Positions 118 to 20,089 of a stretch of 20,089 nt of DNA are shown in pieces (the first letter of the stretch is position 1; each line of letters begins with the position of its first letter). Under the pieces are notes generated by a model. The model saw only the letters and a program-made list of their open reading frames with translations. It ran no database searches and had not been told where the DNA came from. The translations under genes and the position numbers were made by a program. Source of the DNA: Bdellovibrionales bacterium (lineage in GTDB: Bacteria > Bdellovibrionota > Bdellovibrionia > Bdellovibrionales > UBA840); assembly GCA_037969075.1 (NCBI GenBank), contig JBBKWS010000003.1:1-20089 (forward strand). Direction: 5' to 3'.

Positions 118-183
118 GCCATTACAGCATGACAAGTAATTGCCATTTCGCTTTAATAACTAAAATTTTAAGGAGGATAAATA

Positions 184-675
184 ATGTTTAGATCACTTGT
201 TGTTTTACTAAGTCTACTTTTTATTTCTTGTGCAACTTCATATCAGAAAACAGGATTCTCTGGTGGCTATTCTGAAAAAGAAATCAAAAAGGATTTATGG
301 AAAGTTACATTTGGCGGAAATGGTTTTACCACAAAAGACTCCGCTCAAACTTACTGGTTATACCGTGCTTCGGAACTAACTATAGAAAAGGGATATGATT
401 ATTTTGAAATCCAAAACACATGGATTGGTGGTATTCCGCTTTGGAAGGAAAATTTAAACTTCATCATGGTTGCCCAAGTGATATATATTCCGATGGCTGA
501 TGTTTATAAACCAGTAGTAGAGCTAGACATTAAGCTTTATAAGAAACCGTTTCGCCCTAAGGCGCCTAAAAGTTTTGATGCTAAAAAGTTACTATCCACG
601 CTTGATCCTTATGTAAAGGGTAAAAAATGTAGTGATAATAACGTATGTGCGCATGAAAAGACCTATTTGAAATAG
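184..675 (+). CDS. Lipoprotein, resembles the CC0125/CC1285 family
   Basis: SD AGGAGG at 171-176; hydrophobic signal with lipobox FISC; CATxYQ..GGYSE..VTFxGNGFT..LYRAAE-like..GYDYF pattern. The family assignment is from recall of the pattern, not a search. Confidence 0.8.
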   Translation: MFRSLVVLLSLLFISCATSYQKTGFSGGYSEKEIKKDLWKVTFGGNGFTTKDSAQTYWLYRASELTIEKGYDYFEIQNTWIGGIPLWKENLNFIMVAQVIYIPMADVYKPVVELDIKLYKKPFRPKAPKSFDAKKLLSTLDPYVKGKKCSDNNVCAHEKTYLK

Positions 676-750
676 CCCAAAGTCCAGCATTCTTTGTTTT
701 TATTGGAATCATCTGACGACTATTAGAAAATAAAACTTACAGAGGTGAAT

Positions 751-1509
751 ATGATTTTTTCTATTTTTTTAAGTCTAATGTTACAGTCGCCAATGCCATC
801 TTATGCTCAAGACGATGGAGAGTTTGAAATTGAGGCAGAGCACATTGAAATAGAGGATTTAGAAGAAGAGCAAAAGGTTGCACAAGAGCAAGCTCAGCAA
901 AAAGAAGATGAAGCGAAAAAAATGGAGCAAGAATTAAAAAGTGTAAAATCAGAAAAAGAAAAAGTTAAAAAGAAAGCCGAGATAGATATTAAAAGAGCCG
1001 AAGCTCGTAGAATGAAGGCCGTTGTTCGCGAAGGCAAAGCTAAGGATGAGACTAAAAAGTTAAGACTTGAGATTGAAAAAACTCTTAAAAAGGTTGCTGA
1101 TACAGAAGCGAAAGCAAATACAGCTGAAGATAAATTGCGCGCAACAGAAGAAGAGAAGTCCCAGACGATATCTAAGAGAAAAGATGCAAATGGTCGTTTA
1201 GCTGATGCGCAAGAGAAGAAAGCAGATTTAGAAAAGAAAATAAAAAAACTTAGAGAAGAAGTTAAAGTCGAAAAGGCTGCTGCGGTAAAAGCTGAAGCCA
1301 ATGCGAAAAATGCTGAGGCTGTCGCTATTAAAACTGAAAAGCTAGCTAATAAAGAAGAGGCTATAGCAAATAAAGCTACGGCTGCGGCTGAAAAAAGAGC
1401 AGAAGCTGCTAGAAAAAGAGAGTCCGCTGCAAAAGCAAAAAAAGAGGCTGCTGAAAGAAAAATGAAGGCGGCAAAAGAGAGAGCTAAAAAAGCCAAAAAG
1501 GTTAAGTAA
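751..1509 (+). CDS. Secreted K/E/A-rich coiled-coil protein of unknown function (TolA-like composition)
   Basis: ATG 751 follows AGAGGTGA (the ORF track start is GTG 745). Signal peptide ends at SYA|Q. An acidic N-terminus grades into a basic AKK/AAE C-terminus. Confidence 0.8.
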   Translation: MIFSIFLSLMLQSPMPSYAQDDGEFEIEAEHIEIEDLEEEQKVAQEQAQQKEDEAKKMEQELKSVKSEKEKVKKKAEIDIKRAEARRMKAVVREGKAKDETKKLRLEIEKTLKKVADTEAKANTAEDKLRATEEEKSQTISKRKDANGRLADAQEKKADLEKKIKKLREEVKVEKAAAVKAEANAKNAEAVAIKTEKLANKEEAIANKATAAAEKRAEAARKRESAAKAKKEAAERKMKAAKERAKKAKKVK

Positions 1510-14009: not shown

Positions 14010-14124
14010 AACCAAACTGCTCATCTCGTTAGCAACTAGTGTTTGAAACATCATTACCGCTTGCCAAGAATCAAAAATGCCCGCTTAATGAAAATTGCTA
14101 TCTATTTTCTGTAAGGGGTTGAAA

Positions 14125-15912
14125 TTGTCACAACAAAAGATTGTATCTAGTAGTACGGCAGAATATTTTGCAAAAAATCTACAGCAAGTAGGTTTTTCAT
14201 CGCCTACAAAAGCCGTGTTAACAACTTTGAAAGAAGCTGTGGATAACTCACTAGATGCGTGTGAATCAGCTGGTATTTTACCCGAAATAATTATCTCAAT
14301 ACAAAAAGTAGGCACTGGTTCACAAAAAAATACTGATTTAGTTGAAGTGACAGTTGAAGACAATGGCCCGGGGATTGATCCAGATGATTTAGCTCGTGTT
14401 TATGGAGAGTACCTTGCGTCATCCAAATTTGGAAAAGGGCAGTGTTCGCGTGGACAACAGGGTATTGGTATTTCTGCGGCCACCACTTGGGCGCAATTAA
14501 CGAATGCAAAAGGTGTTGTGGTAACGTCTAAGACAAAGCGCATGAGAAAAGCTCTTCGTGGAATTATTAACGTAGATATTAAAAGCAACCGGGGAATGTT
14601 GATCAACAAAGAGATGATTGATTGGCATAAAGAACATGGCAATCGAGTTGAATTTACTATAGATGGTAGAATTCAATTAAATGGTGAGGGTGGTGTGTTA
14701 ACCTATTTGGAGGGTACTACCTTATTGAACCCTCATATGACCCTTCGTTATAAACTTGTGGGTGGAGATGAAGTTGTTGCTGAGCGAGTTACACAAGATG
14801 CACCATTGATACCACCACCAGCTGATCCGCATCCTCATACGATGAAATTAGGTGAGTTTATGACTCATGCCCATTTATTTGGAAATATTAAACTAAGCAA
14901 GTGGTTACGCACGGGTTTCTCGCGGGTATCAGAAAGTTCACTTAAAGAATTTACTAAAAATGGTCTTAAAAAAAATGTGTTAGATCAGTCATTACAAAAA
15001 GTATCAGAAGAAGAATTTAAAAAGGCATATTCAGCCATTCAAAAAACTGATTTGATGGCTCCTAGCACGAAATCTGTATTAACTATTGGAGAAGAAGCTT
15101 TAGCTAAAAGCATACAAAGATTAGGCGAAGTGGACTTCTTTTCAGTAGTTACCAGAAAACCTCGTATTTGTGATTTTAAGCCAGTTGTCGTTGAAGTAGC
15201 TATAGCTAGATTTATCCAAAAGCAAAGTGGCGAAGATAGTGATGAGCCAGTTAGACTTTTACGATTTGCTAACCGAGTTCCATTACAATTTGATAAAGGT
15301 AACTGCGCTATAACAAAAGCAATTGAATCTGTGAACTGGAGAGCTTACGGCTTAAATCAACCTAGGAATGCATTACCTAGAGGGAATTTTGTGTTCGCAA
15401 TCAGTGTAGTATCTCCATTTATTAAGTTTAAGAATGCTTCAAAAGAAACAATTGATGCCAGCGATGAATTGGTTGAAGAATTGCGTCGTGCGCTTATGCA
15501 GGCTGGGCAAAATCTTTCTCGACATATTAAACGAGAGATGAAGGCTGCAGATGTTGAAAGAAAGAAATCACATATTGAAAAGTTTGGCCCAATACTCGTG
15601 GACACATTGGCGAGAATCGTTGGTGCCAATGATAAGCGTCGTAAAAAAGCGATGGATGGTCTGGATGTAATTTTAGGACGTGATACAGAGAGAATTGAGG
15701 AAGCGCTAGAAGTAGCTGAAACAAGACTTCAAAATATGAAAGATAAAAATGCTCACATACATGGTGACGATGAAGACTCTGCGACTGATTCAGAATCTAA
15801 TGAGAGCAAAGTAACTAAAAAAGCTACGAAAAAAGCCACAAAAAAAGTAGCTAAAAAGACAGTAAAGAAAACAGCAAAAAAACCGGCGAAGGCAGTCGCT
15901 AAAAAGAAATAG
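14125..15912 (+). CDS. top6B: DNA topoisomerase VI subunit B with acidic patch and Lys-rich C-terminal tail
   Basis: GHKL motifs KEAVDNSLDA, DNGPG, SSKF..SRGQQGIGIS; YLEGTTLLNPH; transducer RFANRVPL. Start TTG 14125 follows AAGGGG (ORF track start 14095). Confidence 0.95.
   Translation: MSQQKIVSSSTAEYFAKNLQQVGFSSPTKAVLTTLKEAVDNSLDACESAGILPEIIISIQKVGTGSQKNTDLVEVTVEDNGPGIDPDDLARVYGEYLASSKFGKGQCSRGQQGIGISAATTWAQLTNAKGVVVTSKTKRMRKALRGIINVDIKSNRGMLINKEMIDWHKEHGNRVEFTIDGRIQLNGEGGVLTYLEGTTLLNPHMTLRYKLVGGDEVVAERVTQDAPLIPPPADPHPHTMKLGEFMTHAHLFGNIKLSKWLRTGFSRVSESSLKEFTKNGLKKNVLDQSLQKVSEEEFKKAYSAIQKTDLMAPSTKSVLTIGEEALAKSIQRLGEVDFFSVVTRKPRICDFKPVVVEVAIARFIQKQSGEDSDEPVRLLRFANRVPLQFDKGNCAITKAIESVNWRAYGLNQPRNALPRGNFVFAISVVSPFIKFKNASKETIDASDELVEELRRALMQAGQNLSRHIKREMKAADVERKKSHIEKFGPILVDTLARIVGANDKRRKKAMDGLDVILGRDTERIEEALEVAETRLQNMKDKNAHIHGDDEDSATDSESNESKVTKKATKKATKKVAKKTVKKTAKKPAKAVAKKK
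15808..15909 (+). repeat. Degenerate 12-bp (KKxx) repeats encoding an H1-like tail of Top6B
   Basis: Translates to KVTKKATKKATKKVAKKTVKKTAKKPAKAVAKKK. Confidence 0.85.
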
Positions 15913-15920
15913 AGGGTTTT

Positions 15921-17081
15921 ATGGCAAGGTCAGCATCTAATTTTTCAACAAATGATATTATTAAAGAATCAAAGCGTCTTTGTGACTCTATGTTGTCAGA
16001 CCTAGAGGGTGCAAAACGGCCTGTACTCGAGGCTATTAAGTGTTCTTTAGATAACTCTATCTATAATCCTAGTGTCGGTTACTTAACTCCGGGTGATAAA
16101 AGGGTTCGGACGGAGCTCAATGTTTCTTCTGTGCAAAAACTTTCTCGTACGGCTTTTATGCTAGAAATTTTACTAAGAAACTTAGGCTCTGGTCAGGTAA
16201 ATACTAAAAGAGAGCTTTATTATATCTCTAAAGGTATGGTTAAGAACGAGAAAGAATTAAAAGTTTTAGACTTTGATGATCAGGTAGAAAGTGATGCTAT
16301 TGTTGATTTTATCTCTGATATGCTAGAAGTTTACCGTGAAGAGCTGAATTGTTTTGCCAATGACCGCGGTGGACAGACCTATTCTAAAGAGTTGATAGTC
16401 ACTGAGACATTACCAAATGGTAAAATAGCTACTATTGACTTAGGTAGTTTAGGTACAGCGCCATTTCAGCCTAAAAACAAACCTCAAAATTTAAAACTAA
16501 AATCTAGAAAAAAAATTGAGTTCGGTTTAATCGTTGAATCTGAAGGTACGGCCAATACTTTAGTAGCTAATGGTTTTACAGAAAGAAACAAATGTATAGT
16601 AATCGGTGCTCAAGGTGTTCCTAGTAACGGAGTAAGAGGTTGGGCACAATTGATTCAGAATGAATTAAAAATCCCGCTTTATTTTTTCGGTGATCTGGAT
16701 GCGTACACTCTACAAAATATCTACCGTACATTGCGCGCGGGCTCTGCGGCTTCATTGATTAGAAATAAAGATTTCTCAGCTCCATCGGTGAGATTTTTGG
16801 GCGTTTTGCCTGAAGATGTTACTAAATACGATTTGCATTTTTATGATGTTAATGAGAGAGATGCCGGCGAATCTAGAGCTATTAAGAAAGCACAGGATGC
16901 TTTAAAGAACGATCCATTTTTCTTAGATAAAAAAAATAAGAAGTTAGCGGCCATTTTACATTGGTTGGTAAAAGAGAAAAAGCGTTGTGAGCAGCAGGCA
17001 TTTTGGATGGTGGACCCTAAAGATCCACAAGCACCAGAAAAAATCATATTAGATAAAATTCGTAAAGGCTCTTGGGTCTAA
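15921..17081 (+). CDS. top6A: DNA topoisomerase VI subunit A (Spo11 homologue)
   Basis: TKRELYY catalytic-Tyr motif; TOPRIM IVESEG and FGDLD; G.P; CEQQA; 8 nt after top6B with SD GAGG. Confidence 0.93.
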   Translation: MARSASNFSTNDIIKESKRLCDSMLSDLEGAKRPVLEAIKCSLDNSIYNPSVGYLTPGDKRVRTELNVSSVQKLSRTAFMLEILLRNLGSGQVNTKRELYYISKGMVKNEKELKVLDFDDQVESDAIVDFISDMLEVYREELNCFANDRGGQTYSKELIVTETLPNGKIATIDLGSLGTAPFQPKNKPQNLKLKSRKKIEFGLIVESEGTANTLVANGFTERNKCIVIGAQGVPSNGVRGWAQLIQNELKIPLYFFGDLDAYTLQNIYRTLRAGSAASLIRNKDFSAPSVRFLGVLPEDVTKYDLHFYDVNERDAGESRAIKKAQDALKNDPFFLDKKNKKLAAILHWLVKEKKRCEQQAFWMVDPKDPQAPEKIILDKIRKGSWV

Positions 17082-17083
17082 GT

Positions 17084-17566
17084 TTAAGGAAACTTTCTCT
17101 TGTTTTTAGGAACACGAGGTCTTTCTGATACATCAAAATAATTAGCAGGTAGCCTAGAGACTTCCTGCTGCATTTTTGCTAATTGTTTTTGACGTGTTTC
17201 CATACGAGTTTGGCTATCTTCGTCTCTTTTTTTGATGAATTTCTCTCGACTTTTTTCGATCTTCTGTCTTCGCGACTCTCTTTTCTCGACATATTTTTCG
17301 AAGCTTTTCTTGTCATTTTTAGCATTTACTTCTTGCTGCTCATTGCGAGTTTTAATGAATGCAAGTCGTTGCGCTTCTTCTTTTTCAAGGCTTTTAGCAG
17401 TGGTTTTTCGTTGGTCTGCTTGCGCTTTTTTCTCAATTTGTAATTTCTTAGCTTTTTCATCAAGATACGAGGCATAGTATGGATCTTCTTGATAGCGAAT
17501 TTCTTCGTCAAGGTTTTCGAAGTAAACTTGTGCACTCGCAATTTGTAAAAATAGTAATAATATCAT
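17084..17566 (-). CDS. Hypothetical secreted charged coiled-coil protein
   Basis: Very short signal MILLLFLQIASA|Q; K/E/R-rich helical body; sigma28-like promoter directly upstream. Confidence 0.75.
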   Translation of the reverse strand: MILLLFLQIASAQVYFENLDEEIRYQEDPYYASYLDEKAKKLQIEKKAQADQRKTTAKSLEKEEAQRLAFIKTRNEQQEVNAKNDKKSFEKYVEKRESRRQKIEKSREKFIKKRDEDSQTRMETRQKQLAKMQQEVSRLPANYFDVSERPRVPKNKRKFP

Positions 17567-17706: not shown

Positions 17707-20089
17707 ATGGCTATTGAAACTACATCTCAGTTAGTAAAATCAACATATAAGAAAATGCAATCCAATTTAAAGATTATACGCTCTCGCCTTAAGCGCCCAC
17801 TTACATTGGCAGAAAAAATCATGTTTGGGCATCTGGTTGATCCTAAAGGGCAGGATCTAACTAGGGGTGAAAGCTTTTTACTTTTACAACCAGACAGAGT
17901 TGCGATGCAAGATGCGACTGCGCAGATGGCATTACTGCAATTCATGTTGGCAGGAAAAGTAGAAGCGGCCGTACCTTCTACTGTTCATTGTGATCATTTG
18001 ATCCGCGCGAATGCTGGTGAAGAAATAGATATGCAAATTGCAATGTCAGAAAATAAAGAAGTTTTTGATTTTTTACAAAGCGTATCTAGTCGATACGGAA
18101 TTGGTTTTTGGAAACCTGGCGCTGGTATTATCCATCAGGTTGTACTTGAAAATTATGCATTTCCAGGTGGATTAATGATAGGGACTGATTCGCATACTCC
18201 TAATGCTGGTGGCCTAGGCATGTCAGCAATAGGCGTGGGTGGAGCGGATGCTGCTGATGTGATGGCGGGTCTTCCGTGGGAAGTAAAAAACCCTAAATTA
18301 ATAGGGGTACATCTGACAGGAAAACTGAATGGTTGGACATCATCAAAAGATGTTATTTTAAAGCTTTTGGACATACTTACAGTGAAGGGTGGAACTAACT
18401 GTATCGTTGAATATTTTGGTGAAGGTACAAAATCATTGTCTTGTACTGGTAAGGGCACAATTTGCAATATGGGCGCAGAGCTTGGTGCTACAACATCTAT
18501 TTTTCCGTATGATGATCGTATGTCATCTTACCTTGGTGCGACTAAGCGTAGTGAGCTAGCGGATATAGCTGCTGCTCATGAAGAGTTATTGACGGCTGAT
18601 CCAGAAATTGAAAAAGATCCATCTAAGTATTTTGACCAAGTGATTGAAATAAACTTATCTACATTAGAGCCGCATCTTGTGGGTCCACATACGCCTGATT
18701 TAGCGCATACAATTTCTAATATGGCTGAGAATGCAAAAAAGAACTCATGGGAAACTAAACTTTCAGCGGCATTAATTGGTTCATGTACTAATTCATCTTA
18801 CGAAGATATTGGCAGAGCAACTCATGTTGCTAACCAAGCAATTGAAAAAGGGATGAAAATTAATATTCCTTTTTTTGTTTCTCCAGGATCTACACAAATT
18901 CATCAAACAGTACAGCGCGATGGACAAATGGAAATTTTAAATAAAGCTGGCGCTACAGTACTTGCAAATGCTTGTGGACCTTGCATTGGTCAGTGGAAAC
19001 GCGATGAAATGAAAGCTGGCACTAAAAATACAATTGTAACTTCATTTAATAGAAATTTTAGAGGAAGAAATGATTCTAACCCGGAAACCTTAGGCTTCAT
19101 AGGTAGTCCAGAGCTAGTTATAGCTTTGGGATTGGCGGGTAGAGTTGATTTTAATCCACTCAAAGAAGAGTTAACAGCACCAGATGGTACAAAGTTTAAA
19201 CTAATTCCACCAACGGCTCCTGAGTTTCCGGAAAAAGGTTTTGTTGCTGATATGCAAGGCTACGCAGCACCTAAAGGTAGTAGTGCAAATGTAAATGTAG
19301 ATCCTAACTCTAATCGCTTACAATTGTTGACACCGTTTACTCCATGGGATGGTAAAGATATCATTGATGTACCATTACTTCTAAAGGCAAAGGGCAAGTG
19401 CACAACAGATCATATTAGTCCCGCAGGTCCTTGGTTAAAGTATAGAGGTCATTTAGATAATATCTCAGATAACATGTTAATTGGTGCAACGAATGCGTTT
19501 ACCGGTGAAACAGGTACAGTAAATGATCCGTTTACTGGTGAAAAGAGCATCAACGTCTCTAAGCAAGCCCGCGAGTACAAGGCGCAGGGTAAGCAATGGA
19601 TTATTGTTGGAGATGAGAACTACGGAGAAGGTAGCTCAAGAGAGCACGCAGCGATGAGCCCAAGATTTTTAAATGGCATAGCTGTTATTGTTAAGTCATT
19701 TGCTAGAATCCATGAAACCAATCTGAAGAAACAGGGAATGTTAGCGCTTACTTTTGCTAGAGCCTCGGATTATGAAAAAATTAAAGAAGATGATTTATTG
19801 TCAGTTATTGGCGTAAAAAACTTTTCGCCGGGTGAAAATTTAATATTACGGGCCTTGCACGCCGATGGTAGCGTAGAAGATATTGCTTTGGCGCATACCT
19901 ATAGTAAGGAGCAAATTAGTTGGTTTAAGGCAGGGTCAGCGTTGAATATGTTACGCAAAGTAAAGCCTGCAGCCGAAAAGAAGTCTGCGACTAAAAAGAA
20001 GGCTCCATCTAAGAAGAAGGCTCCATCTAAGAAGAAGGCTCCATCTAAGAAGAAGGCTCCATCTAAGAAGAAGGCTCCATCTAAGAAGA
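17707..20089 (+). CDS. acn: Aconitate hydratase, mitochondrial-type, 3'-incomplete, with Lys-rich repeat tail (missing from the ORF track because no stop falls in the window)
   Basis: Hand-translated open frame of 794 codons: [52 protein letters not shown] (Fe-S Cys), [35 protein letters not shown]. Confidence 0.97.
19993..20089 (+). repeat. 18-bp tandem repeat AAGAAGAAGGCTCCATCT encoding KKKAPS
   Basis: One unit with a single mismatch (19993-20010), four identical units (20011-20082) and a partial unit at the window end; in frame with the aconitase. Confidence 0.97.

Follow-up and report, generated by a model that had tools for sequence, protein, structure and literature searches.

Lysine-, alanine- and proline-rich tails of the histone-H1-like kind are carried in bacteria by mycobacterial HupB and actinobacterial TopA. 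Aconitase is a classic moonlighting enzyme, exemplified by the RNA-binding regulator IRP1, by yeast Aco1p, which resides in mitochondrial DNA nucleoids and protects the mitochondrial DNA, and by CitB of Bacillus subtilis. Here we describe a stretch of 20,089 nucleotides (nt) from a Bdellovibrionales bacterium (assembly GCA_037969075.1, contig JBBKWS010000003.1, positions 1 to 20,089, forward strand; hereafter the window), in which a gene for mitochondrial-type aconitase runs on beyond the normal end of the enzyme into a repetitive, lysine-rich tail of this kind. AlgP has an H1-like KPAA tail, which binds DNA and is found at polyphosphate granules (PMC9239181). The RNA degradosome of Caulobacter includes aconitase (PMC3045602), and the enzyme has been reported on polyhydroxybutyrate granules of Herbaspirillum (PMC3783465).

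The aconitase open reading frame (ORF; 17707..20088, plus strand) encodes 794 residues and is still open at the end of the window. In its body the Pfam family Aconitase (PF00330, residues 36-478, E 3.3e-140) is covered over profile positions 1-463 of 463, and Aconitase_C (PF00694, residues 557-685, E 4.2e-38) over positions 3-130 of 131. Residues 14-752 align with residues 18-751 of the 754-residue pig and bovine mitochondrial aconitase chains (PDB 7ACN, 1ACO, 1B0J; E 1e-289), an end-to-end alignment in which the cluster and active-site stretches, including GSSREH, are identical. C360, C423, C426 and S643/S644 are invariant across a 25-sequence alignment; the three cysteines would be the ligands of the 4Fe-4S cluster, and S643/S644 would hold the catalytic serine. 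AlphaFold2 folds the body with a predicted template modelling score of 0.83. The enzyme does not belong to the IRP1/AcnA type of about 890 residues and four domains, as IRP1 chains align only to residues 84-341 (E 1e-53), and the AcnA/B-type genes of relatives match it only in fragments at 30-39% identity. The genome (G000; 211 contigs, 90% complete) yields a single aconitase match, the window gene, which must therefore serve the citric-acid cycle. Judged by its sequence, the enzyme is predicted to be catalytically normal, and it is probably the sole aconitase of the cell.

Past the terminal WFKAGSALN motif, which ends at 19947, the frame continues with a 15-residue head followed by (KKKAPS)x5 KK up to the window end. 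Tandem Repeats Finder (TRF) reports the repeat at 19991-20089 with a period of 18, 5.5 copies, 98% matches and a score of 191, and the 18-nt units are identical in DNA save for one A/G in the first of them. As the solved mitochondrial chains stop three residues past the aligned region, while the window protein extends at least 56 residues more, the tail is a pure addition to the enzyme. In the AlphaFold2 model residues 754-794 have no secondary structure and a predicted local distance difference test (pLDDT) score of 32-44, with values below 50 from residue 754 onwards, and the tail is thus predicted to be intrinsically disordered.

The window is the whole of one contig (C3), and the frame stays open at its end because the contig ends there and not for a biological reason. 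Among the 211 contigs the 18-nt unit occurs only at the end of C3 and at the very start of contig C109, where the same frame reads (KKKAPS)x6 KKKAPARKKK and then reaches a stop at 123-125. Exact overlaps between the suffix of C3 and the prefix of C109 measure 81, 63, 45 and 27 nt, the longest of which gives a minimal protein of 808 residues with a tail of 61. The join of C3 to C109 is supported by three independent lines. On a single contig of the genome G001, which belongs to the same genus, aconitase and tail are followed by the orthologue of the first gene of C109 (a minus-strand ORF at 157..1332), which is the predicted order. Independent contigs, obtained by 31-mer assembly of two runs (X1 and X2) of one sample, possibly the source sample, lead to the same junction: a 20,338-nt contig from this other assembler matches window 19500-20025 without differences, and a second one exits the repeat with exactly the sequence of C109, at a depth of 19.1 against 18.2 for the entering contig. 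Finally, the G001 tail terminates in KKKASRKKK, which resembles the KKKAPARKKK of C109. In the collapsed repeat pieces the word depth exceeds that of the flanks about 8-fold in X1 and about 15-fold in X2, and no contig of either run spans the whole array. These depths hint at an array of about 10-17 units and a tail of about 85-125 residues, estimates on which the two runs disagree and to which other strains may contribute. Run X2 also contains short contigs of the repeat that depart from it by one or two letters (window 19996-20058; depth 19-101, flank 77), and these may represent variant units within the array or co-occurring strains with other units.

The minimal joined tail of 61 residues contains 28 K, 11 A, 8 P, 7 S and 2 R, with a single M, L, V, E and T, that is 46% K, 18% A, 13% P and 11% S. 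It is dominated by K, A and P, acidic and hydrophobic residues are nearly absent, and it is built of short tandem units (18 nt or six residues here, 22 five-residue units in the related genome G003), which places it among the histone-H1-like tails, a class defined by composition and not by homology. The preliminary description of the window had proposed that the frame continues past the normal end of a catalytically intact aconitase into a tail of histone-H1-like composition, and that the codon-identical units suggest a recent or still-variable expansion. The continuation is confirmed, with C109 supplying the stop, as is the composition; the match of the catalytic stretches to the pig and bovine enzyme speaks for an intact enzyme, and the near-identity of the units at the DNA level fits a recent expansion.

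The occurrence of the tail among close relatives was surveyed in the 120 best homologues, with the C-termini of 24 that fell outside the strict motif pattern read directly. No fewer than 117 of the 120 terminate at most 12 residues past the WFKAGSALN motif, in agreement with the earlier statement that mitochondrial-type aconitases normally end a few residues after it, and the three tailed sequences are the three closest ones. By the source names of these homologues the lineage is Bdellovibrio-like. These are P0080 (the G001 enzyme), with 90% identity and a 91-residue tail of KKKAS/KKKVA-like units, P0001, with 82% identity and a 67-residue K-rich tail, and P0002 (the G003 enzyme), with 75% identity and a 128-residue tail of KKKAT units. 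The tails of G001 and G003 are complete and lie on unbroken contigs. Among related genomes, tails were found at two of the 25 loci with the motif, again those of G001 and G003. Across a phylum sample, 168 of 401 genomes have a mitochondrial-type aconitase; 25 of the 148 listed matches have an open frame of at least 777 residues, which leaves room for a 25-residue tail (10 listed matches on contig-cut frames and 20 unlisted matches were left out), and among these 25 only G000 and G003 carry one. A tree built from the enzyme body alone unites G000, G001 and P0001 in a clade with a support of 100, and places G003 within the same family-level clade with a support of 99. The tail was possibly gained once or twice within the family, as judged from this tree, in which the branch joining all tailed rows has a support of just 35. 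The tails of G000 and G001 have the head and the RKKK end in common, while the middle part in G000 arose by recent amplification of one unit.

Tailed aconitases are not restricted to this family. A search with the last 105 residues retrieved six more (P0121, P0122, P0123, P0128, P0137 and P0141) with tails of 60-122 residues, one of them named Bacteroidetes/Bacteroidota bacterium at NCBI. The six fall in a separate 12-row clade beside six tail-less members, and in a 142-row tree the tail state requires five changes, at least four of which are forced by well-supported branches. In named Bacteroidota/Ignavibacteria genomes, 80 loci were collected, 72 of which reach a stop and 73 of which are evaluable (41 of the 80 lay outside the motif pattern and were read directly); tails are present at two of the 73. 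One of these loci, L109, has a 68-residue tail complete to its stop, and the other, L092, has at least 80 K-rich residues after the aconitase before the frame leaves the contig. The L109 aconitase is close to the Bacteroidota/Ignavibacteria enzymes yet lies in a bin labelled as a metagenome-assembled genome of Synechococcus (Synechococcus sp. UW140 MAG), and the contig may be mis-binned. Several tailed aconitases are present in public databases, annotated merely as aconitate hydratase. The feature, first presented as singular, is unusual given that 117 of the 120 best homologues lack it, but it is shared by relatives and recurs in other phyla.

The DNA of the tails differs in apparent age. In the G003 array of 22 KKKAT units, codon positions 1 and 2 are near-invariant, while the third positions of the Ala and Thr codons show all four bases, and comparison of unit pairs gives 551 synonymous against 103 nonsynonymous codon differences. 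By its substitution pattern the G003 array is old and is kept constant as protein, so that the tail is under selection in at least this relative. The DNA encoding the G001 tail is diverged as well. As read from these sequences, the family pattern is one in which charge and composition are conserved while the sequence itself turns over rapidly.

In order to place the tail in its genomic setting, G000 was screened for K-rich tracts and 21 ORFs were scanned against Pfam. Besides the aconitase, which is the sole metabolic enzyme in the set, the ORFs with a Pfam match encode Topo VI-B, TopA, two DEAD-box helicases, RNase R, the ribosomal proteins L17 and L21, IF-2, a SWIB protein and a PBECR2 nuclease, with an OmpA-family protein and a TPR protein as exceptions; eight of the 21 have no Pfam match. 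No other citric-acid-cycle enzyme appeared in the screen. TopA is tailed in five of the five family relatives examined, and L21 has a K-rich tail in G000, G001 and G003 and lacks one in G004 and G005 (L076-L080), the same distribution as that of the aconitase tail. The aconitase tail itself accounts for seven of the 11 K-tract pattern hits in G000 and nine of the 10 in G001, while G005 has 49 hits and yet lacks the aconitase tail. The gain of the tail by aconitase is therefore specific and does not stem from the K-tract load of the genome. A proteome-wide drift to K tracts was considered as a cause and rejected, as the number of hits per family genome bears no relation to the presence of the aconitase tail.

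Immediately upstream of the aconitase gene is a bacterial topoisomerase VI operon, and the adjacency of Topo VI-A and aconitase is retained in G003. Topo VI-B carries a 38-residue K/A/T-rich C-terminal tail encoded by 12-nt repeats (TRF 15808-15883). Between Topo VI-A and aconitase, and convergent with the former, a 160-residue ORF (17084-17566, minus strand) encodes a product with a hydrophobic N-terminus followed by a highly charged K/E/Q/R-rich sequence. Three small proteins encoded elsewhere in G000 are made up largely or almost entirely of such H1-like sequence and are likely nucleoid proteins. The coordinates of the features are collected in Table 1.

Table 1. Location of the aconitase gene, its tail and other features of the genome; positions without a contig name refer to the window.
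Feature	Position	Strand	Basis or remark
Topo VI-B (Topo-VIb_trans, HATPase_c)	14092-15909	+	Pfam
Topo VI-A (TP6A_N, Toprim)	15921-17081	+	Pfam
Mitochondrial-type aconitase, catalytic body	17707..19947	+	ATG to end of WFKAGSALN, 747 residues
Non-repetitive tail head, 15 residues	19948..19992	+	translation; like G001 tail head (LIRKVKASPKKASAT in G001)
Tandem 18-nt units, (KKKAPS)n, interrupted by contig end	19993..20089	+	Tandem Repeats Finder; continues on C109
Gene continuation (units, KKKAPARKKK, stop)	G000:C109:1-125		repeat match; same frame as C3
Terminator-like hairpin, 9-pair, GC-rich, then T run	G000:C109:133-153
Ribosomal protein L21, K-rich C-terminal tail	G000:C142:18810-19349
Sole RNase E/G homologue	G000:C142:20538-21347		about 1.2 kb from L21 gene
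SWIB/MDM2-domain protein, about 58 lysine-rich residues at the N-terminus	G000:C178:15408-15827
Small K/A/T/P-rich histone-H1-like protein	G000:C55:11977-12588	-	strand coordinates
Small K/A/T/P-rich histone-H1-like protein	G000:C145:805-1344	+	strand coordinates
Small K/A/T/P-rich histone-H1-like protein	G000:C182:35915-36643	+	strand coordinates

Taken together, these data can be read as describing a disordered polycationic tail that is translated and selected and that tethers aconitase to a polyanion, most probably RNA or DNA, a reading to which we assign a probability of roughly 0.5. A lysine-rich C-terminal tail of at least 61 and probably about 85-125 residues is fused to an aconitase of normal catalytic make-up; on this reading selection would act on its composition and charge and not on its sequence; the tail would be renewed by amplification of short in-frame units, one 18-nt unit having presumably been amplified recently in G000; and the resulting electrostatic tether would hold part of the aconitase pool on the cellular polyanion. 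The tail itself is real and complete, is conserved in a small clade and recurs elsewhere; what it binds, and what the binding achieves, we infer from its positive charge and from the kinds of protein that bear such tails in G000. Nucleic acid is favoured as the target because comparable tails in G000 are found mostly on DNA or RNA proteins. It is somewhat unlikely that the tether instead leads to another polyanion, such as polyphosphate granules, the inner, anionic side of the membrane or an acidic protein partner (e.g. enzymes of the citric-acid cycle), or that it serves to concentrate the tri-anionic substrates locally. Such a target would agree with the presence of PPK1 in G000, with the polyphosphate granules to which the tail of AlgP goes and with the granule-borne aconitase of Herbaspirillum, but most of the identifiable tail carriers work on DNA or RNA, the K-tract screen found no further enzyme of the citric-acid cycle, and PPK2 was not found in this 90%-complete genome. 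The nucleoid or RNA tether put forward in the preliminary description accordingly keeps its plausibility and is favoured by the genomic context, while polyphosphate or another polyanion may take the place of the nucleic acid; the link to iron or metabolic state proposed there is conjecture.

Two further explanations dispense with a tether altogether. Slippage-prone A-rich repeats at a permissive, exposed C-terminus could have produced the tail as a tolerated by-product with no specific function, which would suit the recent expansion seen in the DNA-identical units of G000, the entirely different tail sequences among relatives, the many relatives without a tail and the abundance of K-tract repeats in the genomes of the family. 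This is unlikely, given that tails are kept in four species-level sequences with 75-90% identity in the body, that the old G003 array has accumulated far more synonymous than nonsynonymous differences, that G000 and G001 share both the head and the RKKK end, that the same enzyme gained tails in separate clades, and that the number of K tracts in a genome is no guide to whether its aconitase is tailed. An assembly artefact, in which an over-extended repeat conceals a true stop near the end of the aconitase, is extremely improbable. Contig C3 does break off inside the repeat, and none of the available reads or contigs crosses the array, but the second assembler reproduces the junction without differences, C109 continues the frame as far as a stop codon, with a terminator-like hairpin after it, the synteny of G001 agrees with the join, and the relatives G001 and G003 have complete tails on unbroken contigs. 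The refutation envisaged at the outset, over-extension with a stop near 19960, thereby fails.

Several observations weigh against a translated and selected nucleic-acid tether. The aconitase tail was not found in G002, G004, G005 or G006, all of the same family, and the other 23 long open frames among the listed phylum matches have none either; the tail is thus dispensable for aconitase function, as most relatives do without one. The array of G000 is young and has no selection signal of its own because its units are DNA-identical. K-rich tracts also occur outside nucleic-acid proteins, since the OmpA-family protein has a K-rich end, and polyphosphate is an available alternative target because PPK1 is present. 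Docking in the manner of the Caulobacter degradosome is unlikely, as the single RNase_E_G match in the 90%-complete G000 lies in a 552-residue frame too short for the long scaffold domain, which it lacks. The body net charge of tailed enzymes (-22 to +7) does not differ from that of tail-less Bdellovibrio-group enzymes (mean -3.2, sd 8.6, n=77); charge compensation within the enzyme body was rejected on account of this overlap. The use of AAG instead of the slippery AAA as a sign of translation was likewise dropped, because the choice of lysine codon is inconsistent among tails: AAG makes up 19 of 21 tail lysine codons in G000 (29% genome-wide), all of them derived from one duplicated unit, 49 of 70 in the tail against 15 of 48 in the body of G003, and 21 of 46 against 21 of 48 in G001, and the other tails of G000 mostly use AAA.

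The recurrence in unrelated bacteria (Bdellovibrio-like, and Bacteroidota/Ignavibacteria) invites a wider and quite improbable conjecture, namely that polycationic tails have been repeatedly recruited to aconitase and mark a general, unrecognised role of the enzyme on RNA or the nucleoid. Where RNase E/G has no scaffold, tailed aconitase, DEAD-box helicases and RNase R could then form a scaffold-free, degradosome-like RNA cluster that would couple RNA turnover to the state of iron or of the citric-acid cycle.

No tailed aconitase was found among the papers listed on aconitase with lysine-rich, C-terminal-extension or histone H1-like features and on lysine-rich features in Bdellovibrio, judged by titles and abstract openings, which is in line with the remark in the preliminary description that no bacterial aconitase with such a tail was known. 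Compared with described systems, the tail of G000 is most like those of Pseudomonas AlgP and PhaF in being C-terminal, disordered, positively charged and made of short K/A/P tandem units of variable copy number. Its unit, KKKAPS, has three successive lysines, whereas that of AlgP and PhaF is KPAA, and the likeness is one of composition in which homology is not demonstrable. AlgP, PhaF, HupB and TopA also differ in what bears the tail, the bearers there being nucleoid proteins, a phasin and a topoisomerase, while in G000 the bearer is an Fe-S enzyme of the citric-acid cycle. The Caulobacter aconitase, Aco1p, IRP1 and CitB offer the complementary parallel of aconitase in physical contact with the machinery of RNA or DNA, which for G000 is a proposal. 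In these cases contact is made through the folded protein, by RNA binding of the apo-form or by docking to the RNase E scaffold, and the enzymes are mostly of the AcnA/IRP type; the enzyme of G000 is of the mitochondrial type, contact is proposed to go through a generic polycationic tail, and the RNase E/G of G000 is without a long scaffold. If a nucleic-acid tail has been gained independently on aconitase in several bacterial lineages, this would be natural evidence that placement of the enzyme on a polyanion is useful. The family also illustrates how such tails evolve, with short in-frame units being amplified and replaced while the charge is conserved. In this respect aconitase is new as the fusion partner of a familiar type of tail, and the system itself is not of a new kind. 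A central metabolic enzyme thereby joins the histone-H1-like-tailed proteins of bacteria, which so far have mostly been DNA or RNA proteins.

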